NCBI GenBank assembly: GCA_017451295.1
Contig: JAFSPW010000049.1
Coordinates: forward strand, 1 to 63,566
Length of the DNA stretch: 63,566 nucleotides
Source of the DNA: Clostridia bacterium
GTDB lineage: Bacteria > Bacillota > Clostridia > Christensenellales > CAG-138
Direction: 5' to 3'
Part shown: positions 18,495 through 42,847 of the stretch, piece after piece
How the letters are laid out: each line of letters begins with the position of its first letter
Numbering within the stretch: the stretch's first letter is position 1
Translations under genes and position numbers: made by a program
The notes under the pieces: model-generated
Told to the model about the DNA's origin: nothing
Databases searched by the model: none
The model's input: only the letters and a program-made list of their open reading frames with translations

Positions 18495-18527
18495 GAAAAA
18501 AGCACTGCAAGAGCAGTGCTTTTTTTC
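18495..18527 (+). terminator. Intrinsic terminator after tRNA-Ala
   Basis: GAAAAAAGCACTGC-AAGA-GCAGTGCTTTTTTTC. Confidence 0.8.
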
Positions 18528-18750
18528 AACGAAATCCGTCCTTGCGGACGGGTGAAATCCGCTGCGCGGGTGAAATCGCCTGCGGCGGTGAAATCTGGAG
18601 GACGGATTTCATTTCATCGCGAGCGCAGCGAACGATTTCATCAAAGGTCTCAGCCTTTGATTTCACCTTTTGCCGCAAGGCAAAAGATTTCACTTTGTCC
18701 CGAGGGTTCGAATCCATCTATCAAAACGAAAAATCCATCTTTTTCATACC
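18528..18750 (+). repeat. Structured tRNA-3'-linked element, copy A (core GGTGAAATC)
   Basis: AACGAAATC/GGTGAAATC at 18528, 18551, 18569, 18587; inverted GATTTCAYY at 18605/18610, 18634, 18659, 18686; hairpins between the motifs; near-identical inverted copy at 25924-26157. Confidence 0.9.
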
Positions 18751-18766
18751 ACACAGGTATAAAAAA

Positions 18767-18871
18767 GGGAGAGTCGAACTGGGTGAGGGAGTGAATGAGG
18801 CCCCAGCGGGGCCTAAGGGCCGAACCCTGACCGAGCCCGCAGGCAAGAGGAGACTCTCCCCACCTCCACCA
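18767..18871 (+). repeat. tmRNA-3'-end-derived fold-back element (att-like remnant)
   Basis: GGGAGAGTCGAACT (18767-18780) is identical to 26199-26212. GACTCTCCCCACCTCCACCA (18852-18871) is the last 20 nt of tmRNA in the opposite orientation. A terminator-like hairpin follows. Confidence 0.85.
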
Positions 18872-19091
18872 CAAGTTCCTTACTCAAACCCCTGTCTAAA
18901 AGGCAGTGATTCGGGTAAGGAATTTTTTATTGCTATCTGCAATAGTGTCGATTCCCATAATCCAATAAAAAACCGCTTTGCGCGGGGAGACCATACGCGA
19001 TTTGCAAACCGAAGGGTCTGTCGATCGGTCATTGATTTAAAACGTCCTACCCCTTATAATAACGTTATATATGACAATGGAGGAATGACGA

Positions 19092-19742
19092 GTGAAAGAT
19101 GGTATCATACCGAATCCCAATACGGTACATCCCATTCCGGGCTATGACAAAGAAATCTATGTGAAGCCGACAATTAAGAATTCCAATATCATCGTTGGAG
19201 ATTTTACTTATATCGCTGATTCAGAATTTGAAAGCCACGTTACCCATCATTATGAATGGAACGGCGACAAGTTGATTATTGGCAAGTTCTGTCAGATTGC
19301 TGCTGGCGTCGAGTTTGTAATGAACGGCGCAAACCACCAGATGAATGCCGTATCAACCTTCCCGTTCTATACGCTGGAAGGCTGGGATATGAAACCGCCG
19401 GCAGCTTCCGACATGCCGCTCAAAGGTGATACTATCATCGGCAACGATGTGTGGATCGGGCAGAATGCCGTCATTTTGCCCGGTGTTCATATTGGCGACG
19501 GCGCGATTATCGGCGCAAACAGCATTGTTGGAAGCGACGTATCACCATATACGATCGTTGCAGGAAATCCCGCCACAGAAATTCGTAAACGCTTTGATGA
19601 TGAGTTGATTCAGCTTATGCTGGATTTCAAGTGGTGGGATAAAAGTGTTGGGGAAATCAATCAACTGATTCCGCTGCTCACTTGCGGCAACCTTGAAAAA
19701 GTGAAGGCCGGGATTTCAGAGCGATTACATGAAAAAGTTTGA
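19092..19742 (+). CDS. Vat/CatB-family xenobiotic O-acetyltransferase (streptogramin A acetyltransferase-like)
   Basis: PNPNTVHP..NIIVGDFTY..KLIIGKFCQIA..MNGANHQM..STFPF..KGDTIIGNDVWIG hexapeptide repeats, WWD motif; GGAGG RBS before a GTG start. Confidence 0.9.
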   Translation: MKDGIIPNPNTVHPIPGYDKEIYVKPTIKNSNIIVGDFTYIADSEFESHVTHHYEWNGDKLIIGKFCQIAAGVEFVMNGANHQMNAVSTFPFYTLEGWDMKPPAASDMPLKGDTIIGNDVWIGQNAVILPGVHIGDGAIIGANSIVGSDVSPYTIVAGNPATEIRKRFDDELIQLMLDFKWWDKSVGEINQLIPLLTCGNLEKVKAGISERLHEKV

Positions 19743-20033
19743 CTTAAGTCCCGATAGGTCCACCATAAAAAGCTCGATATTTCGAGCTTTTTCTTTTTCC
19801 TCGAGACACGCATACGCTTCAAGCCATGTTTTTAGAACAAATTCAGAACAAAAATCAGAGAATTATCCCAGCGTCCTTGTTAATCTGGTTCATTGTAGCC
19901 GATGTCGCATTTCTTTCTTTGTCCATATAGTGAGCATAAGTTTTGAAAATTGCTTCTGCTCCAATCAATCAAAGACAGTATATACTCACTATCGACCATT
20001 GCATCATTCTCCGTTCCCGTTACCGATACCCCT

Positions 20034-20474
20034 TCACGCCATCTTTTCTCTTCCAACCAGGTCAATTAAAAGGTCAATGTTATCTGCGTTTGCGTTGAGA
20101 GTGATCAGTTCCTGCATGCCTTCCCCATAGAGGGTGATATGTCCGCCCGTCTGCCCAAAGCGAGTGGAGATGGGGCATACTTTCATGGCGACAATTTGGT
20201 CTTTGCTCACCCGGTTCACCGGAATCTTACCCCGGTAAAGTGTCAGGTCATCGCCCCGCACCTGTATCCACACTCCCCTGGATGGGCAGTCTATGTTGCG
20301 CCCGGCCAGCCATAGGACAATCCAGCCACCCAATACGGCGATGCCAATCTTCCATTGATAAGCCACAATGCATAGGCAGGTCAAAAGGAAAAATGTGCCC
20401 GACATAGTCTTCCAATACCATATGCGTTGATTTCTGACGATAAAGCTGTCTGTCTGAGATCTGTTTTGTTTCAT
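20034..20474 (-). CDS. Hypothetical membrane protein (2 TM helices plus small soluble domain)
   Basis: MKQNRSQ start overlaps the upstream stop (ATGA); hydrophobic hairpin. Confidence 0.6.
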   Translation of the reverse strand: MKQNRSQTDSFIVRNQRIWYWKTMSGTFFLLTCLCIVAYQWKIGIAVLGGWIVLWLAGRNIDCPSRGVWIQVRGDDLTLYRGKIPVNRVSKDQIVAMKVCPISTRFGQTGGHITLYGEGMQELITLNANADNIDLLIDLVGREKMA

Positions 20475-21037
20475 CTGCGCACCGCCTGAATACTGGTCAT
20501 GCCTTCCCTCTGGGTGAAGGAAGCATATTCCTTTGCTCCTGCCGCAAAGGATATAACAATGAGTATGATTCCCAACCACAGCAAAAAACGCTGCAGGCTT
20601 ATCATCTTCCTGCGGAATTGAACCGGATTATCCGGCTTATAGGCAGCTTCTTCGTTCATTTGCCGTAGGGAGTAACTGGTGCAATAGTCGGCATACGCCT
20701 TGCCGAACCGGCACATGTTCCAAAGCTCCCAGATAACATACAGCAAGGGATACAGGATAAATACGCTCCCTATTTGTATTGAAATGGCCTGTGTGCTGCC
20801 CTGGGGAAGAACACGAGCCATCCAGAGATACGACAGACGATTGATCAGGATAAACGCCGGCCAAGCTCCGCCGAGGAAGGCGGCCATACCCTTGTCCCGA
20901 TGCAGTGAGAACCGTCTTTGCACCGGATGATCCGGCTGCGCGGCTTTTAGGCAGCGGATGGTATGACTGCGTAAGGCCACATAGGCAACGAGCAAAACCA
21001 AATGAAATACTGTGTGGGAAACGAGCCAGTCAAACAT
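20471..21037 (-). CDS. Hypothetical multi-pass membrane protein
   Basis: 188-aa ORF with about 4 hydrophobic segments, coupled to the downstream gene. Confidence 0.6.
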   Translation of the reverse strand: MFDWLVSHTVFHLVLLVAYVALRSHTIRCLKAAQPDHPVQRRFSLHRDKGMAAFLGGAWPAFILINRLSYLWMARVLPQGSTQAISIQIGSVFILYPLLYVIWELWNMCRFGKAYADYCTSYSLRQMNEEAAYKPDNPVQFRRKMISLQRFLLWLGIILIVISFAAGAKEYASFTQREGMTSIQAVRR

Positions 21038-21072
21038 ATTCGCTTTTCCATGCTCCTTTACTGGGCTAATGC

Positions 21073-21666
21073 TTATTTCAGAGGCAGAAAATCCCTGATC
21101 GACGGCCTTTCATCGTTGGCTATCTCAAACTCATATAGAACGGTCCCCTGCGAAATCTTGGTCATATTGATGTTCAAAACGGTTCCGTCCGGAGCCAGGG
21201 CGACATACACATCCAAGCCTTCCGTTCGGGAGAGCAGCTGGTTGCTCAACAATTGAGCAAGGGAGAAATCGGGGCTGTAGAACGTGCCAATTCCCATTTC
21301 GCGAATGGTTCCACCGGCAAAATCCTGAGCAAACAAATCCTTTAGCATATACAGGTGTAGAGCAAGCTCTTCCGCCTCGTGAACCTGATTGTCTGCCAAC
21401 ATGGCATCTGTCAGTTCCACCTGTGTATCTATGGTTTCTTCATTCGCTGCCGTGAAAGGATATACATAGTAGGTTCTGATGCCATCCACCAGTTTCCCCA
21501 CATGGATTTCATCATCTTTGTATAGATACACGGTGTAGTTCCCGGTTTCTATAAAGCGCTTTGCTTTACGATAGGCGTCTTTTCAAAAGCGTTGACAACC
21601 CCCAGTACAAAGCAGCAGCGCCATGCTGCACAGAATTGAAGCTATTTTAATGTTCCATCTTCTCAC
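21073..21666 (-). pseudogene. Lipoprotein gene interrupted by an in-frame TGA at codon 28
   Basis: GTG at 21666 reads MRRWNIKIASILCSMALLLCTGGCQRF*KDAYRKAKRFIETGNYTVYLYKDD..., in frame with ORF 21073..21531; TGA at 21583-21585. Confidence 0.65.
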
Positions 21667-22361
21667 TGCTGTTCTCCCCCTTGAAGCCTCATCTGATACA
21701 GCCCGTCTTCACCCTGAATCTCTATGTGCAGTATGCCGTTTGGCCAGAAACCTTCGCATCGCCCATACCAAAATGTCCCTCCTATTTCAGTCAGCCTTTT
21801 TCTCATTTCATCGGTCTCTGGACAGGATATGTTTGCAGAGTCATCATATCCACGAATCACAATGTAGCAGTCAGATGATTTCTTGGTTTTCAATACATCC
21901 ACGGTGTATTTCTCTGCTTTTTCCTGTGCAATTATAATCCCCGCCTTATTCGTGGTAGATGGCATCAACCATCTGTTGCCTCTATGGGCGTAAACCGCCA
22001 GGTCTGTGATTATAGCTGTACCAGACGAGTAGTGAACCTCCGTTTGAATGACACCCAGGGTGCTATTCTCCCCTTCCACGGTTTCCACAATAGTCCCGCC
22101 GCAATAGTATTGGTTAGCATTTTCCAAAGAGGAAAAACCCGCCAAATTTTCTAACGGATGCCCCAAATAATCCATTCCAAAAGTCAGAGCAGAAAAACCG
22201 ATTACTGACCAGTAAACTACCTCAACCCATTTTGGTTTCTTACTCTTTGGAATAAAAACAGTAATGGAAACAATCCATGCTCCAGCCAACAGGATAAAGC
22301 GCATCCACGCAGCCCCTGGCCATCGACTCATGGGCAAAAGACTGGTATATTCATAAAACAT
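21663..22361 (-). CDS. Hypothetical membrane protein with extracytoplasmic C-terminal domain
   Basis: 232-aa ORF with two N-terminal TM helices and a GGAGGG RBS. Confidence 0.7.
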   Translation of the reverse strand: MFYEYTSLLPMSRWPGAAWMRFILLAGAWIVSITVFIPKSKKPKWVEVVYWSVIGFSALTFGMDYLGHPLENLAGFSSLENANQYYCGGTIVETVEGENSTLGVIQTEVHYSSGTAIITDLAVYAHRGNRWLMPSTTNKAGIIIAQEKAEKYTVDVLKTKKSSDCYIVIRGYDDSANISCPETDEMRKRLTEIGGTFWYGRCEGFWPNGILHIEIQGEDGLYQMRLQGGEQQ

Positions 22362-22522
22362 GCAACGTCCCTCCCTATATAAAAGTCATAATAGATGTTT
22401 CCAGCGGTCTCTCTTTCCTCTTTTGCAAAGGCTTTCATCAAATATGACAATCTTGAGGCGTAAAAATCTACTGAAAATTTTAATATATTTTCGTGATGAA
22501 GTAAAGATGTCTAATATAAGAT

Positions 22523-22729
22523 AATGATGTCGCCGCAAAAGCGGCTGATGATGTATCGGCTGAGGCCGAAATGATGCAGCGCGCTTTACGCGCAATGATG
22601 CGATGGTTGCCCTATGTGCCCGCAGGCACACATCATTGCCGAAGGCAACATCATGTGCCAAGCACGCATCATTTGCCCGTCAGGGCAAACATCATTGCAT
22701 AAAGCACGCCGAAGCGTGCTTTTTTCTGG
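22523..22729 (-). repeat. Structured element, copy D (variant core AATGATGY), preceded on the minus strand by CCA plus the tmRNA-type terminator
   Basis: RCATCATK at 22689, 22666, 22648, 22630 and RATGATGY at 22594, 22570, 22547, 22523, with hairpins between; 22701-22729 is identical to 26162-26190. Confidence 0.85.
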
Positions 22730-22829
22730 AAAAGGTAGACCGTTTTGATAGAATTTCCCGGAGGGGGGTGCATCTGTCCTTTAGGGAGGTTCAGCCATGG
22801 TCGAAGGGGATTCACTTTCAAAAGGGGGT

Positions 22830-23591
22830 TCAAAGTGAGCGATTGGACTGCCCCAGCGAACTTGGATTATCGCATATTGGTAATCTGTTAATATACGCTT
22901 TTACGTAATTTATACATGCCTCGACAAAATAGAACCTAAAATCCTCATAGTACAGAGATGTTTCAAAATGGTAATCTGTATTACGTCCGTGATTTGGTAG
23001 CGTTCTGTTTGCTAACAATTTCTCCGTTGTTGAAAATGACGTTAACCAATTCACTTCAGGGTCATCCCCATAAGCAAATAACTGTATTTCCCAGTATTCA
23101 CCATCATGGACAACTCTGTCTCTGACAAATTTAATGATTTCCAGATAATCAGAGATCGTTAGGCTATAACTGTTATCGAATAGAACACCGTTGATATAGT
23201 CAGTATATGATAATAAGCGAAAACGAGACAGAATACAATTCTTCCCTTCGTCACTAAAGCAATTAGCGAATACAGAATAGAACTGCTTTTTCTCTTTTTT
23301 ATCCAAACAACTCAGATGAAATAGTGACTCTAGACACGTTTTAATAAAGACTATTCGCAATCCATCCCGTACAGGCCAAATCTGATCAATCCTTGATGCT
23401 AGAGTTACAAAACGGTATATTTGATTAATCATTTGTCTTGGAATGCGATTGTTCCAATCAAAGCTGTAAATCCACTGAATGAAAGAAAGTGTTTTGCCTT
23501 CATTTTCGAAAAACGGCTTAAAAAATGAAACTAATCCCGCTTCATTTTCTGCTTCGATAGTTGCAAGATCCATAAGGATGCCCATCTCCAT
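22830..23591 (-). CDS. Hypothetical protein, possible HEPN-superfamily RNase
   Basis: 253 aa, AT-rich; helical region with CLESL and an R-x4-H motif (RDRVVH). Confidence 0.6.
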   Translation of the reverse strand: MEMGILMDLATIEAENEAGLVSFFKPFFENEGKTLSFIQWIYSFDWNNRIPRQMINQIYRFVTLASRIDQIWPVRDGLRIVFIKTCLESLFHLSCLDKKEKKQFYSVFANCFSDEGKNCILSRFRLLSYTDYINGVLFDNSYSLTISDYLEIIKFVRDRVVHDGEYWEIQLFAYGDDPEVNWLTSFSTTEKLLANRTLPNHGRNTDYHFETSLYYEDFRFYFVEACINYVKAYINRLPICDNPSSLGQSNRSL

Positions 23592-23605
23592 TCAATATTA
23601 GACTA

Positions 23606-25687
23606 CTAGGACAGCTTCTTTCTTCTACAAACTGGGCAACCCGAGCCATTTGCTCTATTGCAGATTTTAGCTTGCCATTCATGTCCGTATTTGCACAGCC
23701 ACCAAACTGTTTTGCCAGATTTTAGTGTAACTTGAGTTGGTAAAATCATACCATTCCTTGTGGTATTCCATTCAGCAGCAAGATCAGGATTTATTGTTGC
23801 CAAATCATTAAAACCTAGCAGTACTTTATTCCCTGAACAATATGGACAACCAGAACCCTGTGAACGACTCCCGATTGTTGCTTGCCACTCATGTCCTTCG
23901 GAGCATTTCCACCAAACCTTTCGAGTGCTGCCTCGACTAACCATAGTTGGAGACAATTCTCCGTTTTTTGTTGGGTGCCATTCTAAGGCAAGGTTTGGAT
24001 GAGTGGTTTTCAAATCGTTATATCCTTGTAGCACCATTTGGCCTGAACAATATGGACAGCCGTATCCACTACTACGATTTGCAATTTCCATTTTCCACTC
24101 ATGCCCCTCGGAGCATATCCACCAAACCCTTCGATGGCTGCCATGACTAACCTTAGTTGGCGACAATTCTCCGTTTTTTGTTGGGTGCCAATCTAAAGCA
24201 AGGTTTGGATGAGTGGTTTTCAAATCGTTATATCCTTGTAAAACCAGTCGACCCGCACAATAAGGACAGCTGTATCCTTTTCTACGATCACTAACTTTTG
24301 CCTGCCATTCGTGCCCTTTGTCGCATTTCCACCACACCTTTTTTCCTGATGAGTTGGAAACTAATTCAGGGGTCAACAGACCATTTCTCTCATAGTTCCA
24401 TTCATTTGCAATTTCAGGACACTTTGAGACCAAACTATTCGCCTTTTCAGCAATAATATATTGTTCGTATATTCTAGATGCATCTCTTTCAACATCCACA
24501 TCTATCTTCTCAAATCCAATTTGCTCAAGCAGTGCGCCAATAGCCCAGTTTAAAGATTCTTTGTTTGATGATACACGATATTCAATCGTGTTACCAGAAA
24601 CAGAATTCTTATCACTCTCAACAACCGAAATAATACGAATACCTTTTTGAGCAAAGAACGCTATTTTCTTCTTATCATGTTCTTGTTTGTCTTTGTGATA
24701 GTATCTACCATTATGCTCAATCCCTATTCTGTACTTTGGAAGATATATGTCTATTTCTTTTCCGTAATCTGTATTTCTACTCTCTGCTGAAGTTAGCATT
24801 CTACAATAGAACAGAATTGCTTGCTCCGGAAAGGATGTTTTTAGTTCTTGATTACAAATTGGACACCCAGCTCTTCTAAGTGTTCTGCTATCTATACTTG
24901 CCTGCCATTCGTGACCTTTTCTGCATATCCACCAAACTTTCTTACTCGATCCTGCAGTCACATCAGTCGGATCTAGTGTTCCGTTTTTAGTTGGATGCCA
25001 TTCCTCCGCAACATCAGGGCATATTGTAGCTAAGTCATTAAAACCTGCAAGTACCGTATGTCCCGAGCAGACAGGACAACCGTATCCTCTAATAGTTCGC
25101 TTAACTATCGTTTCTTTCCATTCATGCCCTAAGGAGCATTTCCACCATACTCTTTTTTGAGAGCCTGGCGGAACCATTGTTGGTAAAAGCTTTTGGTTCC
25201 TATTATAATTCCATTCTGATGCGATACTTGGATTCGTTGTAGTCAAGTCGTTAAATCCTATCCACACTTTTTGGTTTGCACAGTAAGGACATCCTGTTCC
25301 ACGCTCAGCTCGCTCAACGACCGCCGCTTGCCATTCATGTCCCAAAGAGCATTTCCACCATACTTTTTTGTTGGAACCAGAAGTAATCATTGTAGGCAAT
25401 AAACCATTATTTTTCTCGTAATTCCAGTCACTTGCGACTATTGGATTAGTTGATGCTAAATCGTTAAAGCCTCTTAACACTTTTCGATTTGAGCAATACG
25501 GGCATTTACTTCCCGCTATTGTGCGATTGTGAATTGGGGCCATCCATTCATGACCTTTATTGCAAATCCACCAAACTGTTTTATGCGATCCTGCAGTCAC
25601 ATCAGTTGGCCTTAGTGTTCCGTTTTGGGTTGGATGCCATTCTTTTGCAAGATCAGGATACTCAGAAGCTAATGATTTCTTTTCCAT
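23606..25687 (-). CDS. Zinc-ribbon (DUF4379-like treble-clef) repeat protein with a central PD-(D/E)XK/Vsr-like nuclease domain
   Basis: Eight ~67-aa repeats (EWHPTKNG..GS.KKVWW.C..GHEW.A.I..R..G.GCPYC), four on each side of SFPEQ..EIDIYLP..IGIEHNGRYYH..DKKK. Start is either 25687 or 25708. Confidence 0.85.
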   Translation of the reverse strand: MEKKSLASEYPDLAKEWHPTQNGTLRPTDVTAGSHKTVWWICNKGHEWMAPIHNRTIAGSKCPYCSNRKVLRGFNDLASTNPIVASDWNYEKNNGLLPTMITSGSNKKVWWKCSLGHEWQAAVVERAERGTGCPYCANQKVWIGFNDLTTTNPSIASEWNYNRNQKLLPTMVPPGSQKRVWWKCSLGHEWKETIVKRTIRGYGCPVCSGHTVLAGFNDLATICPDVAEEWHPTKNGTLDPTDVTAGSSKKVWWICRKGHEWQASIDSRTLRRAGCPICNQELKTSFPEQAILFYCRMLTSAESRNTDYGKEIDIYLPKYRIGIEHNGRYYHKDKQEHDKKKIAFFAQKGIRIISVVESDKNSVSGNTIEYRVSSNKESLNWAIGALLEQIGFEKIDVDVERDASRIYEQYIIAEKANSLVSKCPEIANEWNYERNGLLTPELVSNSSGKKVWWKCDKGHEWQAKVSDRRKGYSCPYCAGRLVLQGYNDLKTTHPNLALDWHPTKNGELSPTKVSHGSHRRVWWICSEGHEWKMEIANRSSGYGCPYCSGQMVLQGYNDLKTTHPNLALEWHPTKNGELSPTMVSRGSTRKVWWKCSEGHEWQATIGSRSQGSGCPYCSGNKVLLGFNDLATINPDLAAEWNTTRNGMILPTQVTLKSGKTVWWLCKYGHEWQAKICNRANGSGCPVCRRKKLS

Positions 25688-25923
25688 TTCATCACCCACA
25701 CTAGACAACGTGTATTAATGCTAGAATACCATAATACGGGCATTCTTTCAATATGAGGCAAATATAAAAATGGGTTTAGGGGTTCAAATTGAACGATTAC
25801 CCTCTGTGTCGATCACACCATAAACCATACGCTTCCCTTCCAAACGTAATCCACCTTAATATGATAACAGAAAAACAATAGGATTGCTGCTGTTAAAATA
25901 GCAATCCTATTCTGGCAATGGTG

Positions 25924-26157
25924 TACGAAAAAGATGGATTTGCGTTTTTGACAGATGGATTCAAACCCTCGGGACAAAGTGAAATCTTTTGCCTTGCGGC
26001 AAAAGGTGAAATCAAAGGCTGAGACCTTTGATGAAATCGTTCGCTGCGCTCGCGCTGAAATGAAATCCGTCCTCCACCCCGCGAAGCGGGATTTCACCGC
26101 CGCAGGCGATTTCACCCGCGCAGCGGATTTCACCCGTCCGCAAGGACGGATTTCGTT
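25924..26157 (-). repeat. Structured tRNA-3'-linked element, copy B (behind tmRNA)
   Basis: Near-identical reverse complement of 18528-18750, plus an extra central CCGCTTCGCGG hairpin. Confidence 0.9.
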
Positions 26158-26187
26158 GAAAAAAGCACGCCGAAGCGTGCTTTTTTC
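26158..26187 (-). terminator. Intrinsic terminator after tmRNA
   Basis: GAAAAAAGCACGC-TTCG-GCGTGCTTTTTTC on the minus strand. Confidence 0.8.
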
Positions 26188-26545
26188 TGGTGGAGGTGGG
26201 GAGAGTCGAACTCCCGTCCGAAGATGAGATGACCCAACTTTCTACGAGCGTAGCCGTCGTACAAGTATTCCCCTTGCGGCACTCCCAACGGCGGGATTGC
26301 CGGTCCGGTAGCTTCATAAAGTCCGGTCCGGGGCAAAGCTTACCCGGGTTCGTTCCCTATCCTAAATGACGCCCGAATCCGAGACGATAGGTCTTCTCGG
26401 GCGGACGCTGTACCGCACTTAGGCGGCGACAGGCATTGCGTTGTAGTTGTCTGTTATGTTTAAACAGTTCCCGCTTTTATCGAAGCGCGGGGCTTCGGCT
26501 CGCTTATCCGGCCCTCACTATCCCCGTCGAAACCATTTCACCCCC
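26188..26545 (-). ncRNA. ssrA: tmRNA; predicted tag (A)DNYNAMPVAA* at 26451-26419
   Basis: 5' GGGGGTGAAATGGTTTCGACGGGG, 3' GAGTTCGACTCTCCCCACCTCCACCA with G3-U pair; ATAACA-GAC resume context; tag ends in AA; directly downstream of smpB. Confidence 0.96.
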
Positions 26546-26560
26546 ATGACGGATAGTATA

Positions 26561-27028
26561 TCAGGCTTTGTAGTCCTTCATGCGCCGGTCAATCTCCCGG
26601 CTGGCATCCTTTTCGGCCAAATCGTGCCGCTTATCATAGAGCTTTTTGCCTTTGGCCAAGGCAAGCTCAATCTTCACCTTCCCGTCCTTAAAGTAAGCGG
26701 AAAGGGGAATGAGGCTGTATCCCTGGGCTTGCTGCAAGCCATAGAGCTTGTTAATCTCCCGCTTGTGCACGAGGAGCTTGCGGGTGCGGAAGGGGTCGTG
26801 GTTGAAGATGTTCCCCTGCTCGTAAGGGCTGATATGGACCCCGACAAGCAGCAGCTCCCCGTTTTTTGCCATGGCATAACCGTCCTTCAAGTTCAGCGCC
26901 CCCTTGCGAACGGATTTTACCTCCGTCCCCGTCAGGGCAATGCCGCACTCCAAGGTGTCCTCAATGAAATAATCATGCCGGGCCTTCCGATTCACGGCGG
27001 CCACTTTTATTCCCTTATGGACAGGCAC
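26561..27028 (-). CDS. smpB: SsrA-binding protein SmpB
   Basis: [46 protein letters not shown]. Confidence 0.97.
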
Positions 27029-27044
27029 TTTCCTTCCCTTTCAC

Positions 27045-27085
27045 AAAAAAGCGGCACAGACGAAAGCTCGCTGTGCCGCCCTTTG
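27045..27085 (-). terminator. Intrinsic terminator after secG
   Basis: GCGGCACAG...CTGTGCCGC stem with a T-run on the minus strand. Confidence 0.6.
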
Positions 27086-27094
27086 TCTTTTACA

Positions 27095-31805: not shown

Positions 31806-31806
31806 G

Positions 31807-33441: not shown

Positions 33442-33452
33442 ACCCCTGCTCC

Positions 33453-33950: not shown

Positions 33951-34022
33951 AGCCACCTCCCCTTGTAACCAGCATACAGTATACCATGTAATTTCTCGGC
34001 AAACAAGATAGAAATGTGTCAA

Positions 34023-34355: not shown

Positions 34356-34398
34356 GGGCTCAGTATGCCCCAAAAGGGGAATTCCTTGCAGCCGCCGC

Positions 34399-37419: not shown

Positions 37420-37515
37420 ATAATCCCTCTACTTTGCATCGCAAAAGATAGGCTAAGTTTAGCCTAAGGGAACCCTGACTGTAAATGATTTTTGGCTGAA
37501 TTTACGCTTTGTTCA

Positions 37516-38037
37516 TCAGACCGGATGGAAGGGCGACGTCTGGGCAATCTCCATGGTCAGCTGCTGCACGTCCACTTCCGACAGAATTTCGCTATAGATG
37601 CGGGTATCCCCCACCGGCAGTGTCAAATCCCCTTCGGCGGTGTGCAGACGCCCAAAGCCCACCATCTTCTCGTTCTCATCGTAGAAGTACACATAGGCTT
37701 CCCCCGTCAGCGTGGCGGAGAAGCCGTTGGTGCACACGCCATCCAGATACGTATACCCATCCAGCTCATAGACCCGTATGCGGGAGAAGGTGAGATAATA
37801 GGTGAAATAATGATTCTCTGCATCCAAAATGGGGATGCCGTTGCGATCCGTTTCCCAGCTCTCCCCCATCACCGGTTCAAAGGTGAGCTGCTCCGGTGCC
37901 TGGGTGGGCTCCGGGGTGGCATCTGATGCAGCGCTTGGCCGAGGGGACTCCGGGTCGGTATAGGAAAGCCAGGCATCCTGCCGCACGCAGCCCAGCAGCA
38001 GTAGCCACATGGCAACAACCAGCAGCTTTTTGCTCAC
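37516..38037 (-). CDS. Hypothetical lipoprotein
   Basis: GTG start after GGAGG; KKLLVVAMWLLLLGC lipobox and Pro/Thr linker. The longer upstream ORF extension is antisense shadow of arcC. Confidence 0.7.
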   Translation of the reverse strand: MSKKLLVVAMWLLLLGCVRQDAWLSYTDPESPRPSAASDATPEPTQAPEQLTFEPVMGESWETDRNGIPILDAENHYFTYYLTFSRIRVYELDGYTYLDGVCTNGFSATLTGEAYVYFYDENEKMVGFGRLHTAEGDLTLPVGDTRIYSEILSEVDVQQLTMEIAQTSPFHPV

Positions 38038-38178
38038 AGAAGATGCCTCCTTTCCCGTTTTATGAAAGCATAGCACAAAAACAGCCTCATAGCAAGCTTC
38101 CTCGTTGACAGGCGTTTTTTTCTGCTCTATACTGATTTTAAGGTAAGCACAAAAACTTTTTTGCAGGGGGTATGAAGT

Positions 38179-39123
38179 ATGAAACGCATCGTCATCGCCC
38201 TGGGCGGCAACGCCCTCCAGGAAGCCGGACAGCCCGCCACCGCCGAAGCTCAGCTTCAGGTGGTAGAAAGCACCGCCGCCTACATTGCGGACATCATCGC
38301 CGCCGGTTATCAGGTGGTGGTGGCCCATGGCAACGGACCCCAGGTGGGCCGCATCGTGTTGCAGAACGAGGCCGCCAACGCCATCACGCCCGCCCTGCCC
38401 TTCGATGTTTGCGGCGCCATGAGCCAGGGCTACATCGGCTATCACATCCAGCAGGGGCTTTCCAAGGTCCTGCGTGCGCGGGGCATTCAAAAGAGCGTGG
38501 TCACCCTGGTGACCCAGGTGGTGGTGGATAAGGACGACCCTAAGTTTCAGAACCCCACGAAGCCCATCGGCCCCTTCTATTCCAAGGAGGAAGCTGAGGC
38601 TCTCACGAAAGAGAAGGGCTATGTTATGAAGGAGGACGCCGGTCGAGGCTATCGCCGGGTGGTGGCTTCCCCCCTGCCGGTCCGCATCGTGGAGCTGGAT
38701 GCCGTAAAGGCCTTGGAGCAAGCCGGCTTCGTGGTGGTCACCGTGGGCGGCGGCGGTATCCCCGTGGTGGAGGATGAATATGGCAACCTCACGGGTACGG
38801 CGGCGGTCATCGACAAGGACCTGGCCAGCGAAAAACTGGCGGAGGACTTGGATGCCGATGCCCTGGTCATCCTGACGGCGGTGGAAACCGTGGCCATCAA
38901 CTATAAGAAGCCGAACCAGCAGGAGCTTTCTGCCATGACCGTGAAAGAGGCGGAGCAGTACGCCGCCGAGGGTCAGTTCGCCCCCGGTTCCATGCTGCCC
39001 AAGGTGGAGGCGGCGGTGAAGTTTGCCAAGAGCAAGCCCGGCCGCAAGTGCATCATCACCTCCCTTGAAAAGGCAGTGGATGCCCTGCAGGGCCGTGCCG
39101 GCACCGTGGTAACCCTAAACTAA
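38179..39123 (+). CDS. arcC: Carbamate kinase
   Basis: IALGGNAL, HGNGPQVG, PTKPIGPFY, RRVVASPLP, AVIDKD, GSMLPK. Confidence 0.95.
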   Translation: MKRIVIALGGNALQEAGQPATAEAQLQVVESTAAYIADIIAAGYQVVVAHGNGPQVGRIVLQNEAANAITPALPFDVCGAMSQGYIGYHIQQGLSKVLRARGIQKSVVTLVTQVVVDKDDPKFQNPTKPIGPFYSKEEAEALTKEKGYVMKEDAGRGYRRVVASPLPVRIVELDAVKALEQAGFVVVTVGGGGIPVVEDEYGNLTGTAAVIDKDLASEKLAEDLDADALVILTAVETVAINYKKPNQQELSAMTVKEAEQYAAEGQFAPGSMLPKVEAAVKFAKSKPGRKCIITSLEKAVDALQGRAGTVVTLN

Positions 39124-39126
39124 GAC

Positions 39127-39172
39127 TTATCCACACAATCCACACTATCCACAGTTTTCCGACTTATCCACA
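39127..39172 (+). promoter_or_regulatory. Intergenic DnaA-box cluster
   Basis: TTATCCACA (39127), CAATCCACA (39136), CTATCCACA (39145), TTATCCACA (39164), all co-oriented. Confidence 0.75.
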
Positions 39173-39202
39173 TTTTGACCAATTTTATAAGGAGGATACC
39201 CC

Positions 39203-40477
39203 ATGAAACCCTATGCCGACCTAACCAAAGCCCAACAGCAAGCGGAATTAGTTGCCCTGCAGGAACAGTATCAGCAGATAAAGGCCCGGGGGCTCAGCCT
39301 GAACATGGCTCGGGGCAAGCCCTCATCTGAGCAGCTGGACATTGTCAACGGCATGCTGACCACGCTGTCTGCCGGTTCAGACTGCTATGACGGAAAGCTG
39401 GACGTGCGTAACTATGGGGAGCTCATGGGCATTCCCAGCGCCCGGGCGCTGTTTGCGGACATCCTCGATACCGTGCCGGAGAAGATTATGGTGGGGGGCA
39501 GCGCCTCGCTGCAGCTCATGTTCGATTTAATCAGCAAGGCCTACACCCACGGTCTGCTCCATTCCCCCACGCCCTGGGCAAAGCTCGATACGGTGAAGTT
39601 CCTTTGCCCCGCCCCGGGCTATGACCGGCATTTTACCGTCAGCAGCACGTTTGGCATGGAGCTTGTGTATGTGCCCATGACAGAGAACGGGCCGGACATG
39701 GACAAGGTGGAGGAGCTTGTCCAGGACCCCACCGTGAAGGGTATCTGGTGCGTGCCCAAGTATTCCAATCCCGACGGCATCATCTATTCCAAAGACACCA
39801 TCGAGCGGTTTATCCATCTTCAACCGGCCGCCCCGGACTTTACCATCATGTGGGACAACGCGTATTGCATCCACGAGGTCATCGGGGACTATGTGCCCTT
39901 CCCGGATATCCTGTCGCTGGCGGCGCAGGCGGGCACGGAGGATATGTTCTATGAGTTTGCCTCCACCAGCAAGATTACCTTCCCCGGTGCCGGTATCTCC
40001 TGCATGGCGGCCAGCGTGGACAACATACAGTACATTCAACGGATTCTCTCCGCCCAGATCATCAGCTACGACAAGGTGAACCAGCTGCGGCATGTGAAGT
40101 ATTTGAAGGACAAAGCCCACACCCTGGAGCTGATGCAAGAGCACGCCAAGGTTTTAGGTCCCAAGTTCCAGGCCGTATTAGACGCCCTGGACAGGGAGAT
40201 TGCGCCGCTCAACATCGCCACCTGGCGCCGTCCCAAGGGCGGCTACTTCGTCAGCTTCTATGCCATGCCCGGCACCGCCAAGCGCATCTTCGCCCTGTGC
40301 AAGGAGGCGGGCTTGGTCATGACCAACGCCGGTGCCACCTATCCCTATGGCAAGGACCCCGCGGACAGCAACCTGCGTATCGCCCCCTCCTATCCGCCCC
40401 TGCAGGATTTACAGCAAGCCATGGAAATCTTCTGCCTGTGCACCAAGATAGCCGCCCTGGAAAAGCTGCTTGGCTAA
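39203..40477 (+). CDS. PLP-dependent aminotransferase class I/II (Rv3722c/AspAT Ic-like)
   Basis: LNMARGKPS, PGYDRHF, VPKYSNPDG, WDNAY, STSKITFPGAG, LRIAPS. Confidence 0.9.
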   Translation: MKPYADLTKAQQQAELVALQEQYQQIKARGLSLNMARGKPSSEQLDIVNGMLTTLSAGSDCYDGKLDVRNYGELMGIPSARALFADILDTVPEKIMVGGSASLQLMFDLISKAYTHGLLHSPTPWAKLDTVKFLCPAPGYDRHFTVSSTFGMELVYVPMTENGPDMDKVEELVQDPTVKGIWCVPKYSNPDGIIYSKDTIERFIHLQPAAPDFTIMWDNAYCIHEVIGDYVPFPDILSLAAQAGTEDMFYEFASTSKITFPGAGISCMAASVDNIQYIQRILSAQIISYDKVNQLRHVKYLKDKAHTLELMQEHAKVLGPKFQAVLDALDREIAPLNIATWRRPKGGYFVSFYAMPGTAKRIFALCKEAGLVMTNAGATYPYGKDPADSNLRIAPSYPPLQDLQQAMEIFCLCTKIAALEKLLG

Positions 40478-40532
40478 GACACAAACGCAAAAAAAGAGCC
40501 GGTGATACTATCGGGTCTTCCATCAAAGCATA

Positions 40533-40572
40533 CAATTCGGAGAGAGTGAAAGCTCTCTCCGATTGTTATTTT
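40533..40572. terminator. Terminator hairpin between convergent genes
   Basis: TCGGAGAGAG-TGAAAG-CTCTCTCCGA stem. Confidence 0.6.
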
Positions 40573-40587
40573 TACGATTGCCGACAG

Positions 40588-41856
40588 CTATGCCCAGATG
40601 AGCCAGAGGTATACATACCCGGTCATCACCGCAACTAAGGTGTAGGGCAGGCCGATTCGCATAAACTCTGCAAACGACACCTGATATCCTTCTTTTCTCA
40701 GCATTCCCACTGCGGCGATATTCGCAGATGCACCGATAGGCGTGACGTTTCCGCCTAAGGTAGCGCCGGACAGCAGCCCGAAGTACAGAAGATACGGCTC
40801 CATCCCCAGCGCTGCCGTTACAGCCGTCAGAACAGGCAGCATCGTCGCCACATACGGGATATTATCAACGAAGGCGGAAATAAGCACCGATCCCCAGACT
40901 ACGATTGTGTATAACAGGAAGATGTTGTTGCCGCCGAATGTTACAATCAGCCTTGCAAAATCATCGATGATGCCAACATTTGTGAGTCCGCCTATTACGA
41001 CAAACAATCCTGTAAGAAGCCCCAGCGTTTCAAAGTCCAGATTCTGTATGGCCTCGATGGCATTATGTGCATCTCTGGCTTGAATGAAATCAATCAGGAT
41101 CGTGACAACTGCCAATGAACAGCAGATAACGCCATTGATTATCTGCGGTGCATCCGGGATGAATGAAGCGGTAATGAGAGCCGCAACCATCAAAAGCAGC
41201 ATTACGGTCGGAACATAGTTGCTGACGGAAGTTTTCTCTGTTGCTGATACCGGCGCCTTGTCTTTGCGGAACAAATACATCATGACCGGCACGGTAGCGA
41301 GCGCTCCGAGTTCTACGGCAAAGAAGATGCCGGGCCGTCCGTTCATCCAAAAGAAATCCATGAAGTTCATGTTCGCATAGTCGCCTAACATGATGGATGT
41401 TGTATCCCCGACAAGCGTTGCAGCGCCCTGCAGATTGGAGGACACTGCAATAGAAAGAATCATGCCCACGGGGCTCATCTTTAGCTTTTTGCAAATGGCC
41501 ATCCCCACGGGAGCAACCATCAGGACCGTGGCAACGTTGTCGATGAATGCCGAGATTACGCCGGCAAAGAGAGACATCAGTATGGTTACCCACATAACAT
41601 TTTTAGATTTTCCCAGCAGGATGTCTGCCAAAAGGTTCGGCATGCGGGAATCAATGAAATAATAAACGATAATCATTGTTCCCGCTATCATCAGCAAAAC
41701 ATTCCAGTTGATCGTTGACAGCAGATTGTTCAGGGGCAATATGCCTGAAATCAGAAAAATCGCCGCCACAGACAGAGCGTAAATCGGCCTGTATTTTGGC
41801 TTGGCGATCATAAGTACATACATCAAAGCAAACAGGACTAAAGCAAGAATCTTCAT
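40588..41856 (-). CDS. ArsB/NhaD/SLC13-type ion transporter permease
   Basis: SAFIDNVATV, SNLQGAATLVGD, SAFVDNIP, LGGNVTPIGASAN; about 12 TM helices. Confidence 0.88.
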   Translation of the reverse strand: MKILALVLFALMYVLMIAKPKYRPIYALSVAAIFLISGILPLNNLLSTINWNVLLMIAGTMIIVYYFIDSRMPNLLADILLGKSKNVMWVTILMSLFAGVISAFIDNVATVLMVAPVGMAICKKLKMSPVGMILSIAVSSNLQGAATLVGDTTSIMLGDYANMNFMDFFWMNGRPGIFFAVELGALATVPVMMYLFRKDKAPVSATEKTSVSNYVPTVMLLLMVAALITASFIPDAPQIINGVICCSLAVVTILIDFIQARDAHNAIEAIQNLDFETLGLLTGLFVVIGGLTNVGIIDDFARLIVTFGGNNIFLLYTIVVWGSVLISAFVDNIPYVATMLPVLTAVTAALGMEPYLLYFGLLSGATLGGNVTPIGASANIAAVGMLRKEGYQVSFAEFMRIGLPYTLVAVMTGYVYLWLIWA

Positions 41857-41868
41857 CTTATTCCTCCG

Positions 41869-41970
41869 TCAACACCTGTGGGAATATTGAGAATTATGGG
41901 GCATTTGATTCATGCCGTAGATAAAGAACGCCAATCCGCCGAGCAATGTGAATACGGAAAAGATACTCAT
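41869..41970 (-). pseudogene. Truncated N-terminus of a Na/Pi cotransporter (NptA/YjbB-like)
   Basis: MSIFSVFTLLGGLAFFIYGMNQM then an abrupt unrelated tail and stop; GGAGG RBS. Confidence 0.6.
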
Positions 41971-42003
41971 AGATGCCTCCGAATGTAGTGTTGCAAAATG
42001 AAC

Positions 42004-42125
42004 AAAAAAAACTTTTACCACAACCAAAGCTGTGGTAAAAGTCTTGCTGCTTCGAACAGATTCCGGGGAAAATCCCGTACTGACGGAATATGTTGCGCGC
42101 TTGCGCCAGCTACTCCCTAATACCT
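42004..42125 (-). promoter_or_regulatory. yybP-ykoY (Mn2+) riboswitch with overlapping terminator
   Basis: Minus strand reads TAGGGAGTAGC...CCGTCAGTACGGG..CCCGG...AGCAAGAC, then CTTTTACCACA-loop-TGTGGTAAAAG-T8; TTGACA at 42156-42161. Confidence 0.8.
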
Positions 42126-42227
42126 ATAGTATCATATAACACTTTAGCGTCATTTTGTCAAGAAAGAGCGCCGGGCGACGGCAGTCAAAAAGTGCAATGT
42201 ACCGCTCCTCTGCAAAGCTGTGCGCTA

Positions 42228-42581
42228 TCAATCGGCGCTTTGATTCTTTTTTGCTGTATTTACCGAGTAAACAAGCATTCTACGAAGGGAGCCGCACATA
42301 TGAATGAGCCCAGATACTGTATCCGATGGTGCAAGCTCTGCCTTCTGCATGAGCTCCAACCAGTATTCTGTTTCATAGCACTCTTTCAATGCAATTTGCA
42401 GTTTTACTATGAAATCCGCTCTGCTGTGGGCATAGTTTGCCTCACGAATATTTGCTCCAATACTGGTGGCGGAACGTTCCAACTGATTGACAAGGGAATA
42501 ATGTCCTTTTATAGTATCACACAGTTTCAATATATTAACGGAAAAATCCATTGAGAGTGCGGCAAGTTTGCTTTCAGCCAT
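42228..42581 (-). CDS. Four-helix-bundle protein (TIGR02436/23S-IVP family, Avd-like fold)
   Basis: LVNQLERSATSIGANIREA..AHSRADFIVKLQIALKECYETEYWLEL signature; GAGGTGA RBS. Confidence 0.92.
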   Translation of the reverse strand: MAESKLAALSMDFSVNILKLCDTIKGHYSLVNQLERSATSIGANIREANYAHSRADFIVKLQIALKECYETEYWLELMQKAELAPSDTVSGLIHMCGSLRRMLVYSVNTAKKNQSAD

Positions 42582-42629
42582 AGAAGTCACCTCATGAACA
42601 TCATATCACACGAAATGTAAGGGAACAAC

Positions 42630-42807
42630 GGTGAAATCGCGGCCCCGGCCGCGGTGAAATCAACGGCCAATGCCATTGGTGAAATCCTCTCACTTCGTCC
42701 TCGGGTGAAATGAAATCCGTCCCGCACCCCGCGAAGCGGGATTTCACCGCGAAGCGATTTCGCCCACCGAAGGTGGATTTCACCCGTCCGAAAGGACGGA
42801 TTTCGTT
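42630..42807 (-). repeat. Structured tRNA-3'-linked element, copy C (behind tRNA-Leu, upstream of the four-helix-bundle gene)
   Basis: GATTTCRYY at 42799, 42776, 42756, 42740 and GGTGAAAT(C/G) at 42704, 42678, 42653, 42630; hairpins differ in sequence from A/B but remain paired. Confidence 0.9.
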
Positions 42808-42847
42808 GAAAAAAGCACTTTTGTCTATCGACAAAAGTGCTTTTTTC
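42808..42847 (-). terminator. Intrinsic terminator after tRNA-Leu
   Basis: GAAAAAAGCACTTTTGTC-loop-GACAAAAGTGCTTTTTTC. Confidence 0.8.

Follow-up and report, generated by a model that had tools for sequence, protein, structure and literature searches.

The palindromic elements behind three stable-RNA genes in the analysed stretch of a Clostridia bacterium genome (63,566 nt, referred to as the window) look like copies of a gut-Clostridia palindromic repeat that settles past terminators, especially those of tRNA genes, rather than a novel system for capturing genes. At their core is Gut-1, a motif already catalogued as Rfam RF01706. Gut-1 arrays form a dispersed repeat that is patchy between genomes, with copies nearly identical both within one genome and between genera; the linkage to tRNA genes is real for one lineage of the family, not general.

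The window contains three homologous elements, copies A (18527–18697, + strand), B (25978–26158, - strand) and C (42629–42808, - strand), located 30–45 nt past tRNA-Ala, tmRNA and tRNA-Leu, respectively. Their orientation relative to the RNA gene is identical, and each follows the 3' CCA and a terminator composed of an A-run, a hairpin and a T-run. For coordinates and supporting evidence see Table 1. The common architecture reported in the initial annotation was confirmed: GGTGAAATC occurs 13 times in the window, always inside A, B or C, compared with 0.55 occurrences expected by chance and a maximum of three over 100 shuffles. The layout of four forward linkers followed by inverted ones, with short GC-rich hairpins in between, is as described there; the count of four inverted linkers, however, becomes five when the ATTTCATTTCA doublet is split, and the fourth hairpin is present in B and C but missing from A. 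The hairpin sequences of A and B are unlike those of C, yet pairing is preserved, as the annotation had noted for what is indeed a real family with conserved hairpin structure. The fourth copy mentioned there, D, exists as well and combines the same architecture with a different linker motif. An alignment revealed a tail of about 55 nt with a T-arm-like GAGGGTTCGAATCC common to A and B. The terminator had been taken for the tRNA's or tmRNA's own. It does stand after the CCA, but it is part of the repeated unit, with an identical sequence in copies B, D, C49 and C75.

Table 1. Features of the repeat copies and their surroundings in the window.
Feature	Position	Strand	Evidence
tRNA-Ala(GGC), precedes copy A	18419–18494	+	ARAGORN; Rfam tRNA 66.7 bits
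Copy A terminator (A-run/hairpin/T-run, bidirectional-looking)	18495–18526	+	Sequence; homologous terminators elsewhere with compensatory stem changes
Copy A first half = Gut-1 array; linkers AACGAAATC and 3x GGTGAAATC, three hairpins	18527–18599	+	RF01706 67.4 bits (cut-off 50)
Copy A centre GGACGGATTTC (complement of start GAAATCCGTCC) and inverted second half	18600–18697	+	Opposite-strand Gut-1 34.9 bits, under cut-off
Tail with T-arm-like GAGGGTTCGAATCC, A-rich/T-rich end; common to A, B, C49, C75	18698–18749	+	Alignment; similar tails in other genomes
Hairpin unit (~100 nt) ending in 20-nt tmRNA 3'-end copy, inverted relative to tmRNA gene	18768–18871	+	Sequence comparison
Low-GC segment between inverted copies A and B	18872–25919	.	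GC 39–51% vs backbone 55–62%
Copy D, linker ATGATG/CATCAT	22523–22700	-	Gut-1 35.9 bits, under cut-off; sequence
Copy D terminator, same sequence as that of B	22701–22727	-	Sequence; junction 22709/26181 in an X1 contig
Copy B tail, inverted second half and centre	25920–26085	-	154 nt 95% complementary to A
Copy B first half = Gut-1 array	26086–26158	-	RF01706 69.7 bits; 75 nt 100% complementary to A
Copy B terminator	26159–26187	-	Sequence; identical in C49, C75, D
tmRNA (ssrA), tag DNYNAMPVAA	26188–26545	-	ARAGORN; Rfam
PF05635 gene (23S rRNA intervening-sequence protein family), directly 3' of copy C	42228–42590	-	Pfam 84.5 bits
Copy C centre and inverted second half	42629–42735	-	Opposite-strand Gut-1 30.8 bits
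Copy C first half = Gut-1 array	42736–42808	-	RF01706 69.6 bits
Copy C terminator with a long hairpin; terminators of other genera are homologous	42809–42848	-	Sequence comparison
tRNA-Leu(GAG), precedes copy C	42849–42932	-	ARAGORN

The first halves of A, B and C match the Gut-1 model over its whole length (positions 1–77 of 77) and above its gathering score of 50 bits. Copy D and the second halves (30.8–34.9 bits, on the opposite strand) stay under this cut-off. The initial annotation had recognised no named family, a claim that this match overturns and against which the annotation itself had set such an Rfam hit. As in Gut-1, three hairpins are joined by GUGAAAU in the first halves, whereas the inverted second half and an 11-nt complement between start and centre are additions to a model that represents one half only. 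Gut-1 was listed as a likely RNA, or noncoding RNA candidate, by Weinberg et al. in 2010 and given there as restricted to the human gut (PMC2864571); we found it in MAGs labelled goat, sheep, roe deer, cattle, water buffalo and horse. Nor does the Rfam model describe the sister subfamilies with other linkers, the linkage to tRNA genes, the tail or the terminator that the unit carries. With respect to the orientation of RF01706, our loop statistics suggest that the stable hairpin caps are on the opposite strand.

Pairing is perfectly Watson-Crick in 193 of 213 distinct stems. Single interior non-Watson-Crick pairs comprise four G-T and four C-A, hence no G-T excess among these eight events. The linker is conserved across the GAAAT arrays, which contain 239 distinct hairpins, 204 of them closed by a 5'C-G3' pair. 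On one strand, first-half loops are of the type T..C in 47 of 66 cases and never G..A; on the same strand, second-half loops are G..A in 42 of 62 cases and T..C once. The stable loop type, C(GNA)G or C(GNNA)G, changes strand between the halves, from the bottom strand in the first to the top strand in the second. Since the polarity is mirrored in this way, no single transcript carries all stable loops. d(GNA) loops closed by C:G are a very stable form of DNA (PMC3201870, PMC13037366). The 11-nt start/centre complement has been retained through seven different sequences and covaries, with both sides changed at 7 of 11 pairs. Folded as RNA, the element is far more stable than its shuffles (z = -7.6). 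Altogether, the stem and loop statistics seem to lean against selection at the RNA level.

This 1.67-Mb MAG holds 20 Gut-1 matches, many of them at contig ends. Within the same family, the motif was detected in 53 of 151 genomes and 21 of 50 genera; as 29 candidates were scored in each genome, the top genomes contain at least 29 matches. The linker is uniform within one element, and subfamilies switch it jointly on both halves (GTGAAAT, ATGATAT, ATGATG, GCGATAT, GTGAATT). At least 12 near-identical copies of the CGATAT-type sister subfamily are located 2–30 nt past protein-gene stop codons in this genome, each with its own GC hairpin and T-run, and about 30 GAATT-type arrays were found. Upstream of half-only arrays, a same-strand open frame ends within 200 nt in 34 of 46 cases. 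Compared with L032 and L117, which lie behind other tRNAs in a genome of another genus (G114), the first half of C has 2 differences in 103 positions; within the genus, tmRNA plus smpB are only 77–87% identical. None of nine genus relatives carries an array behind tmRNA, none of nine carries one behind tRNA-Leu, and both flanks vary among them. Inverted repeats of the MITE type were observed as convergent arrays at both ends, enclosing about 370 nt of other modules at locus L054, and as the 11-nt inverted repeat that bounds the first half. A PF05635-like ORF follows 9 of 48 full palindromes.

In one lineage, 25 of 56 elements stand directly behind tRNA or tmRNA 3' ends, covering 13 RNA identities. 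Of the 21 elements that lack a full tRNA, at least 9 nevertheless have, by our own reading, a fragment resembling an acceptor strand plus CCA in front of them. The proposed enrichment at the 3' ends of tRNA genes thus holds for this lineage but not for the CGATAT-type copies past stop codons. Locus L045, behind tRNA-Val, consists of three tandem units; ahead of two of them stands a 20-nt copy of the tRNA 3' end beginning inside the T-loop, so that a direct repeat is present at the far side of the insert. The tmRNA 3'-end repeat in the window occurs in the inverted position only, and repeats of the tRNA-Ala and tRNA-Leu 3' ends are absent from the window (up to 3 mismatches in 18 nt). A comparison of tmRNA and tRNA-Leu with relatives placed the insertion point right after the CCA and not in the T-loop. 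The unit common to A, B, C49 and C75 stands behind four RNAs whose 3' ends differ, and hence has no specificity for an att core.

The DNA behind A/B and behind C is low in GC. Between A and B it encodes a hexapeptide transferase, several ORFs without a Pfam family and a DUF4379-repeat protein, and it includes copy D. The hairpin unit of about 100 nt that lies directly 3' of tmRNA in all nine relatives read is displaced beside A here. Judged from the sequence, the 7-kb segment between A and B seems to have been flipped by recombination between these inverted repeats, and the displaced unit marks this putative inversion. The RtT RNA (RF00391) of E. coli is a set of repeats behind tyrT, each ending in a copy of the tRNA 3' end. 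It is these tmRNA-end units, not the Gut-1 arrays, that resemble RtT in being arranged in tandem behind a stable-RNA gene and in repeating about 20 nt of the gene's 3' end at the end of each unit; the RF00391 match, however, is weak and non-significant (15.2 bits, cut-off 45, E = 2.7). A 3.5-kb segment bounded by the identical terminators of B and D is missing from one metagenome contig (DNA run X1), which joins 22709 to 26181 and lacks precisely the B cassette. Units stacked with intervening genes were found in the window (B, two genes, D) and at L173. For the gene capture suggested in the initial annotation, such cassette-like stacking is circumstantial only. Its accessory cargo is borne out by the low-GC island in the window, but not by the other genomes, where the ORFs scanned behind 11 of 12 tRNA-linked loci include holA/comEC and parB/rsmG.

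As the annotation had stated, integrase, transposase and reverse transcriptase domains are absent from the ORFs between A and B and adjoining C. PF00589 has only four matches in this genome, and the sole one in the window (10217–11350) lies among housekeeping genes. An integrase-family gene is found within 3 kb at only 1 of the 12 tRNA-linked loci of other genomes. Y1_Tnp (PF01797) gave no match in this genome (75% complete). Across the 151 genomes the overlap with Gut-1 is weak (both 24, Gut-1 only 29, PF01797 only 31, neither 67), and the 29 of 53 Gut-1-positive genomes without PF01797 include the high-copy genomes G142, G030, G050, G122, G094 and G068. In a non-systematic look, no target-site duplication was noticed between filled and empty sites and no autonomous relative or parent IS was met. 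Replication or transfer genes did not adjoin the copies examined.

REP/BIME elements of enterobacteria are multi-copy extragenic palindromes past gene ends, organised in mosaics of alternating orientation; they are recombination substrates and may terminate or stabilise transcripts. Correia and RUP-type elements are MITEs with structured ends. We consider it somewhat more probable than not that the elements described here are a mosaic DNA repeat of this REP/BIME/MITE-like kind, which carries its own terminator and is also a recombination substrate. They share with REP/BIME the many extragenic palindromic copies just past gene ends and the mosaics, in alternating orientation and with other motifs. 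REP hairpins, however, are conserved in sequence, whereas in the present elements conservation lies in the linker and the hairpins are variable, a reversal that counts against the DNA-repeat reading. There is also no link to a RAYT/Y1 transposase, and one lineage prefers tRNA/tmRNA 3' ends. Like MITEs and other stem-loop repeat families (PMC2267715), the elements are small and non-autonomous, have inverted ends, are near-identical within a genome and patchy between genomes, and break short-read assemblies. Unlike in MITEs, the inverted "ends" are hairpin arrays of 75–100 nt, and neither a target-site duplication nor a parent IS was identified.

Based on these comparisons we propose the following organisation. 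The family would be a modular palindromic DNA repeat that gut Clostridia (Oscillospiraceae and relatives) carry in many copies. Its basic module, the Gut-1 array, would be built from short GC-rich perfect mini-hairpins strung on one conserved linker motif of 7–9 nt. Two inverted modules would act like long structured terminal inverted repeats, which abut (A, B, C, D) or enclose other repeat modules, and the unit would bring its own intrinsic terminator. The family sits immediately past terminators or stop codons, in one lineage past tRNA/tmRNA CCA ends or displaced copies of them. Probably the element acts as DNA, in the form of single-strand hairpins or cruciforms with C(GNA)G or C(GNNA)G caps, and the uniform linker is a putative site for a trans-acting protein. 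Copies would spread and be homogenised by copy-and-paste or recombination, not by RNA-level selection. As side effects, the copies may add termination or insulation and may recombine, as the putative A/B inversion and the B/D-bounded segment missing from one contig suggest. The weak overlap of Gut-1 with Y1 and the failure to find a mobilising enzyme count against a DNA repeat. The tight tie to tRNA 3' ends and their displaced fragments, moreover, suggests site-specific events, for which a plain REP model has no explanation.

The retained 11-nt complement, together with the fixed orientation after an upstream gene or terminator, resembles selection on a folded single strand, possibly RNA. Gut-1 as a structured RNA, arising by read-through of the tRNA, tmRNA or mRNA terminator or working as a multi-hairpin cluster for termination or 3' protection, nevertheless appears fairly unlikely to us. 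The hairpins and the start/centre helix would then be RNA structure, in line with the covariation, the fold stability, the earlier listing as likely RNA and the position of the arrays, half-only ones included, behind upstream frames. Close-set clusters of at least two hairpins less than 15 nt apart near a gene end, with a drop in RNA-seq signal, have been reported as joint intrinsic terminators past stop codons (PMC8355165), and the linkers of 7–9 nt in A, B and C are within this spacing. Against an RNA, wobble pairs are nearly absent, all linkers carry one motif, which is more than base pairing alone requires, and the element stands behind a strong terminator. The sense-strand loops of the first half would be UNC/UNNC, to our knowledge not a stable class of RNA loops, and the loop polarity flips in the second half. 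Near-identical copies with patchy presence also suit a repeat better than a gene. Signals on single-stranded DNA that diverge from the centre (ssi-like priming or hairpin-promoter sites), left by or serving a plasmid, phage or conjugative element, would explain the stable loops on divergent strands of the two halves; such mini-hairpins are present in the phage G4 origin, RSF1010 ssiA and phage N4 early promoters (PMC13037366). With dozens of copies per chromosome behind ordinary genes and the missing replication and transfer genes, this is very improbable.

It is unlikely, in our view, that terminator and palindrome form a boundary module of DNA integrating at tRNA/tmRNA 3' ends, similar to attC. 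Each cassette would bring a tRNA 3'-end copy, the terminator and the palindrome, repeated events would stack cassettes, and the palindrome (a folded single strand or a protein-binding array) would be a putative recombination or arm site. The tandem units of L045, the acceptor-strand-like fragments, the gene-bracketing stacks, the exact absence of the B cassette from one contig the low GC behind A/B and C and the variable flanks of tmRNA and tRNA-Leu among relatives are consistent with such events. The units also resemble integron attC sites as imperfect palindromes, thought to be folded single strands at cassette boundaries, that sometimes bracket genes. However, no IntI adjoins them, their ends misfit the attC consensus in a comparison by eye, and they are anchored past terminators or tRNAs, with most copies bracketing no gene. 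The unit shared behind different RNA 3' ends, the insertion right after the CCA, the scarcity of integrase-family genes and the core genes behind several loci argue against this module as well. Furthermore, sister subfamilies occur at dozens of ordinary gene ends, and a classical arm-site model gives the perfect GC hairpins between the motifs no role.

While a mosaic DNA repeat remains our preferred reading, the units could, though this is quite doubtful, mark the boundaries in a cassette system that is anchored at tDNA and works without a classical integron integrase, in which a putative protein (perhaps the PF05635 four-helix-bundle protein, whose gene is often a neighbour of the units) would read the uniform linker of arrays folded as single-stranded DNA mini-hairpins. 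In that case, the sequences behind tRNA and tmRNA genes would be places where gene cassettes can be stacked, inverted or lost.

At each of the three RNA genes the CCA end is followed by a terminator (A-run, hairpin, T-run) and then by a palindromic element, termed A behind tRNA-Ala, B behind the tmRNA and C behind tRNA-Leu, in an identical orientation relative to the gene. Aligned in gene orientation, the three copies show a mean column identity of 77% over 345 columns, the fourth hairpin being missing from copy A. All 13 occurrences of the motif GGTGAAATC in the window fall within A, B or C, whereas 0.55 would be expected by chance and 100 shuffled sequences gave at most 3. The shared build, the alignment and a motif count far above the shuffles confirm the elements as real, as the initial annotation had proposed. 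The terminator of a fourth copy, D, which has a different linker, is identical in sequence to that of B.

Features of the window, and contigs of the same genome that carry GCGATAT-type copies
Feature	Position	Strand	Remarks
Tyrosine recombinase (PF00589)	10217-11350	-	103.9 bits; amid RNase H, MiaA, Met gamma-lyase
tRNA-Ala	18419-18494	+	ARAGORN
tmRNA-end unit	18768-18871	+	adjoins copy A; inverted relative to tmRNA
Copy D	22523-22700	-	build as A, B and C; linker ATGATG/CATCAT
DUF4379 protein	23606-25708	-	700 aa; eight treble-clef zinc-finger repeats; 556 bits
tmRNA	26188-26545	-	ARAGORN
PF05635 gene (23S rRNA intervening-sequence protein family)	42228-42590	-	directly after copy C
tRNA-Leu	42849-42932	-	ARAGORN
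GCGATAT-type copies			contigs C6, C13, C21, C74, C81, C91, C94, C95, C106, C108, C110 and others

An Rfam scan of the window identified the first halves of A, B and C as Gut-1 (RF01706) with 67.4-69.7 bits (cut-off 50 bits), the matches spanning model positions 1-77 of 77. The second halves match on the opposite strand with 31-35 bits, under the cut-off. The initial annotation had recognized no named family and had set the comparison with Rfam beforehand as one point on which this view could fail; with Gut-1 returned, it had to be given up. A scan of the other repeat modules at 11 loci found no further Rfam family. Gut-1 entered Rfam around 2010 as a gut-metagenome 'RNA' of orphan status, and we know of no role for it. 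Its description presents it as a likely noncoding RNA found in human-gut metagenome sequence only (Weinberg et al. 2010, PMC2864571). Our results place Gut-1 in named MAG lineages, namely Oscillospiraceae and further Clostridia from the guts of humans and animals, and show that it forms one half of a larger palindromic unit, which has a terminator of its own.

On balance we favor, with some reserve, a reading of these units as a mosaic DNA repeat resembling REP, BIME or MITE sequences, composed of a Gut-1 module and a terminator and located at the ends of transcription units, with one lineage tied to tRNA and tmRNA genes. The Gut-1 array, a row of short GC-rich hairpins joined by one linker motif, would be the module of this repeat; the unit would bring its terminator along and settle where transcription units end, in one lineage at tRNA/tmRNA 3' ends. 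Stem-loop repeat families are a well-known class (PMC2267715). The elements have a recurrent internal design. The first linker and the 5' arm of the first hairpin, together 11 nt, pair exactly with the 11 nt at the centre, a complement present in 61 elements, with 7 arm sequences and 3 variants of the linker, and absent from a shuffled control. In a set of 44 rows both sides had changed at 7 of the 11 pairs; pairing is 100% in this set by construction, because the rows were chosen for the exact complement. A looser search gave 45 exact, 9 one-mismatch and 3 two-mismatch cases with about 5 true exceptions, the other high-mismatch rows being, by reading, internal linkers caught by the loose start pattern. 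Within any one element the linkers are of one motif throughout. Pairing does not demand such uniformity, which points to either a sequence-specific factor or growth through duplication.

Evidence exists that Gut-1 proliferates in the manner of a DNA repeat and does not behave like a conserved RNA gene. The MAG to which the window belongs (1.67 Mb, 114 contigs, completeness 75%) contains 20 Gut-1 matches (E <= 0.001), 7 of them over the cut-off and many at contig ends, a count limited by the incompleteness of the MAG and by this placement of the repeats. A same-family sample yielded matches in 53 of 151 genomes and 21 of 50 genera, with at least 29 in the richest (29 candidates were scored per genome). 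In a pattern scan of species-representative genomes, the carriers came from human and animal guts and were mostly labeled Clostridia, Eubacteriales, Oscillospiraceae, Ruminococcaceae, Acutalibacteraceae, Faecousia or Christensenellaceae.

A motif-array scan revealed sister subfamilies with unchanged grammar and the linkers ATGATAT, ATGATG, GCGATAT and GTGAATT. Of the GCGATAT subfamily the window's own genome contains 12 or more near-identical copies, located 2-30 nt past stop codons, each of which opens with its own GC hairpin and T-run. Arrays with a GAATT linker number about 30 in this genome. Copies of both types, many at contig ends, probably fragment the assembly. In a genus relative (G142) the arrays form the outer parts of longer mosaics built from other hairpin modules, and at locus L054 a stretch of about 370 nt lies between two convergent arrays. 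The window's compact palindromes follow the same design, except that their arrays have next to nothing between them. The first half of copy C (42706-42808) differs at only 2 of 103 positions (~98% identity) from two loci of a genome of another genus (G114), where they lie behind tRNA-Glu (L032) and tRNA-Ser (L117). A third locus of G114 (L118) has the first half of L032 except for one loop base. By contrast, tmRNA plus smpB are only 77-87% identical inside the genus, and as a sequence comparison the near-identity of copy C suggests recent horizontal spread.

The link to tRNA genes holds for one lineage. In the window's own genome, which has 40 tRNA/tmRNA genes, A, B, C, the copies on contigs C49 and C75 and an ATGATAT-type copy on C112 lie 30-47 nt past such a gene. 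Across all loci examined, 25 of the 56 elements with the start/centre feature and sufficient upstream sequence have a same-strand tRNA or tmRNA within 120 nt upstream, with 13 RNA identities, a proportion biased by the origin of the other-genome loci from the top of score-ranked lists. By reading, at least 9 of 21 elements without an upstream tRNA are preceded by an acceptor-strand-plus-CCA-like fragment. At locus L045 (G092:C12, 1-960) tRNA-Val is followed by three Gut-1 units in tandem, each about 275 nt long; a 20-nt copy of the tRNA-Val 3' end, starting in the T-loop, precedes two of them, and a 35-nt tail is common to all three. On contig C78 an ATGATG-type element (1890-2120, +) follows a tRNA-3'-end-like sequence (…GGTTCGAGCCCTACCTGGGGAGCCA), and ARAGORN finds no tRNA on this contig. 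Direct repeats of the tRNA-Ala or tRNA-Leu 3' ends were not found within the window. The enrichment at tRNA/tmRNA 3' ends claimed initially thus stands for this lineage but does not extend to other subfamilies (0 of the 12 GCGATAT-type copies listed).

None of nine genus relatives has an array behind the tmRNA. Instead, all nine (among loci L131-L140) have 1-3 tandem units of about 150 nt there, each a terminator plus a ~100-nt hairpin whose 3' arm copies the last 20-25 nt of the tmRNA and whose 5' arm is their reverse complement. Such a tmRNA-end unit, which adjoins copy A in the window, may be a small separate element targeting the tmRNA end; against RtT (RF00391) it scores a non-significant 15.2 bits. 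A and B are inverted repeats of each other (75 nt at 100%, 154 nt at 95%). From these repeats and the inverted unit beside A we infer that recombination between A and B flipped the intervening segment. At the tRNA-Leu locus the window's genome diverges from its relatives directly past the CCA, and none of the nine has an array or a PF05635 gene there. A contig from gut-metagenome DNA (X1) joins 22709 to 26181, skipping 3471 nt with B and two genes, and a second metagenome DNA contig joins 22592 to 25910. Judging from these junctions, related strains lack the segment carrying copy B and two genes (22592-26181).

The initial annotation regarded the elements as heading accessory cargo, and its idea of a gene-capture structure corresponds to a boundary module of tDNA-anchored cassettes. 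The GC content between A and B is 39-51%, compared with 55-62% in the backbone, and 47% in the 41-43-kb stretch behind C. The ORFs of the A-B segment encode a hexapeptide transferase, five proteins without a Pfam family and the DUF4379-repeat protein, whose gene has internal DNA repeats of 210-213 nt. As the initial annotation stated, no integrase, transposase or reverse transcriptase domain was found in these ORFs or in the ORF after C. In other genomes the genes behind the element are not consistently accessory: 20 ORFs from 11 of 12 tRNA-linked loci include holA/comEC, parB/rsmG, a peptidase, transporters, methyltransferases, a surface protein, an HTH protein and one integrase-family gene. 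This mixture makes cargo a feature of the window and not of the family, and we consider the cassette reading quite unlikely. A PF05635-like ORF starts within 250 nt past 9 of 48 full palindromes and 6 of the 22 tRNA-linked ones. These genes often begin with MAESKL (L058, L070, L149, L181, L197, L198, L209 and others) and adjoin palindromes behind different tRNAs in different genomes; the family is also encoded within rRNA intervening sequences. The Y1 transposase family PF01797 has no match in the window's genome (75% complete). In the sample of 151 genomes, Gut-1 and PF01797 occur together in 24, Gut-1 alone in 29, PF01797 alone in 31 and neither in 67, and six high-copy Gut-1 genomes are without PF01797. 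The Gut-1-only genomes and the absence from the window's genome rule out RAYT/IS200 as an obligatory partner. Of four PF00589 matches in the latter, the one in the table, which lies in a housekeeping neighborhood outside the interval initially annotated, is probably a chromosomal Xer-type enzyme.

A genuine RNA, as a read-through trailer or as a terminator made of clustered hairpins (cf. PMC8355165), appears unlikely. Copy A folds far more stably than shuffles as DNA and RNA and on both strands (z -5.5 to -7.6), local hairpins being mixed with long-range GAAATC/GATTTC pairing. Any palindrome would yield such folds, which therefore count neither for nor against the rod with side hairpins proposed in the initial annotation. 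Perfect Watson-Crick pairing is found in 193 of 213 distinct stems, and single interior non-Watson-Crick pairs are G-T (4) and C-A (4). A 5'C-G3' pair closes 204 of the 239 hairpins. Read on the upstream tRNA's strand, loops of first-half hairpins are T..C in 47 of 66 and never G..A, and those of second-half hairpins G..A in 42 of 62 and T..C in one. The C(GNA)G and C(GNNA)G caps sit on each array's strand opposite to the Rfam orientation and, since loop polarity flips at the centre, are never all on one transcript. The orientation of arrays relative to ORFs is a weak criterion, since long open frames occur on both strands of GC-rich DNA. We compared contigs of the metatranscriptomes X15 and X17 and of the DNA runs X1 and X2 with 18300-26700. 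For X15 and X17 the tmRNA (26168-26448) has mean word depths of 283.6 and 87.3, the copy-B bin 0.84 and 1.67 and copy A 0-1.6, contig values that leave strand and level unreadable and may stem from DNA. C:G-closed d(GNA) loops are unusually stable in DNA (PMC3201870) and similar mini-hairpins occur at single-strand initiation sites (PMC13037366); that the elements are divergent single-strand DNA signals is highly improbable in our view.

The literature searched contained no published account of Gut-1 arrays as a palindromic tRNA-end repeat and, as far as these searches reach, the element grammar and its tRNA preference are undescribed. Gut-1 loci should not be tallied as sRNA genes absent transcript evidence. 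At tRNA loci the repeats cause breaks in short-read MAG assemblies. They also border a 7-kb island, putatively inverted, and a segment of 3.5 kb behind the tmRNA that is present in some strains and absent from others, which bears on genome plasticity. The grammar is unusual in combining a conserved linker with variable, perfect mini-hairpins, polar C(GNA)G caps and a start/centre complement that covaries, and it offers a concrete starting point in the search for the protein or process behind the elements.
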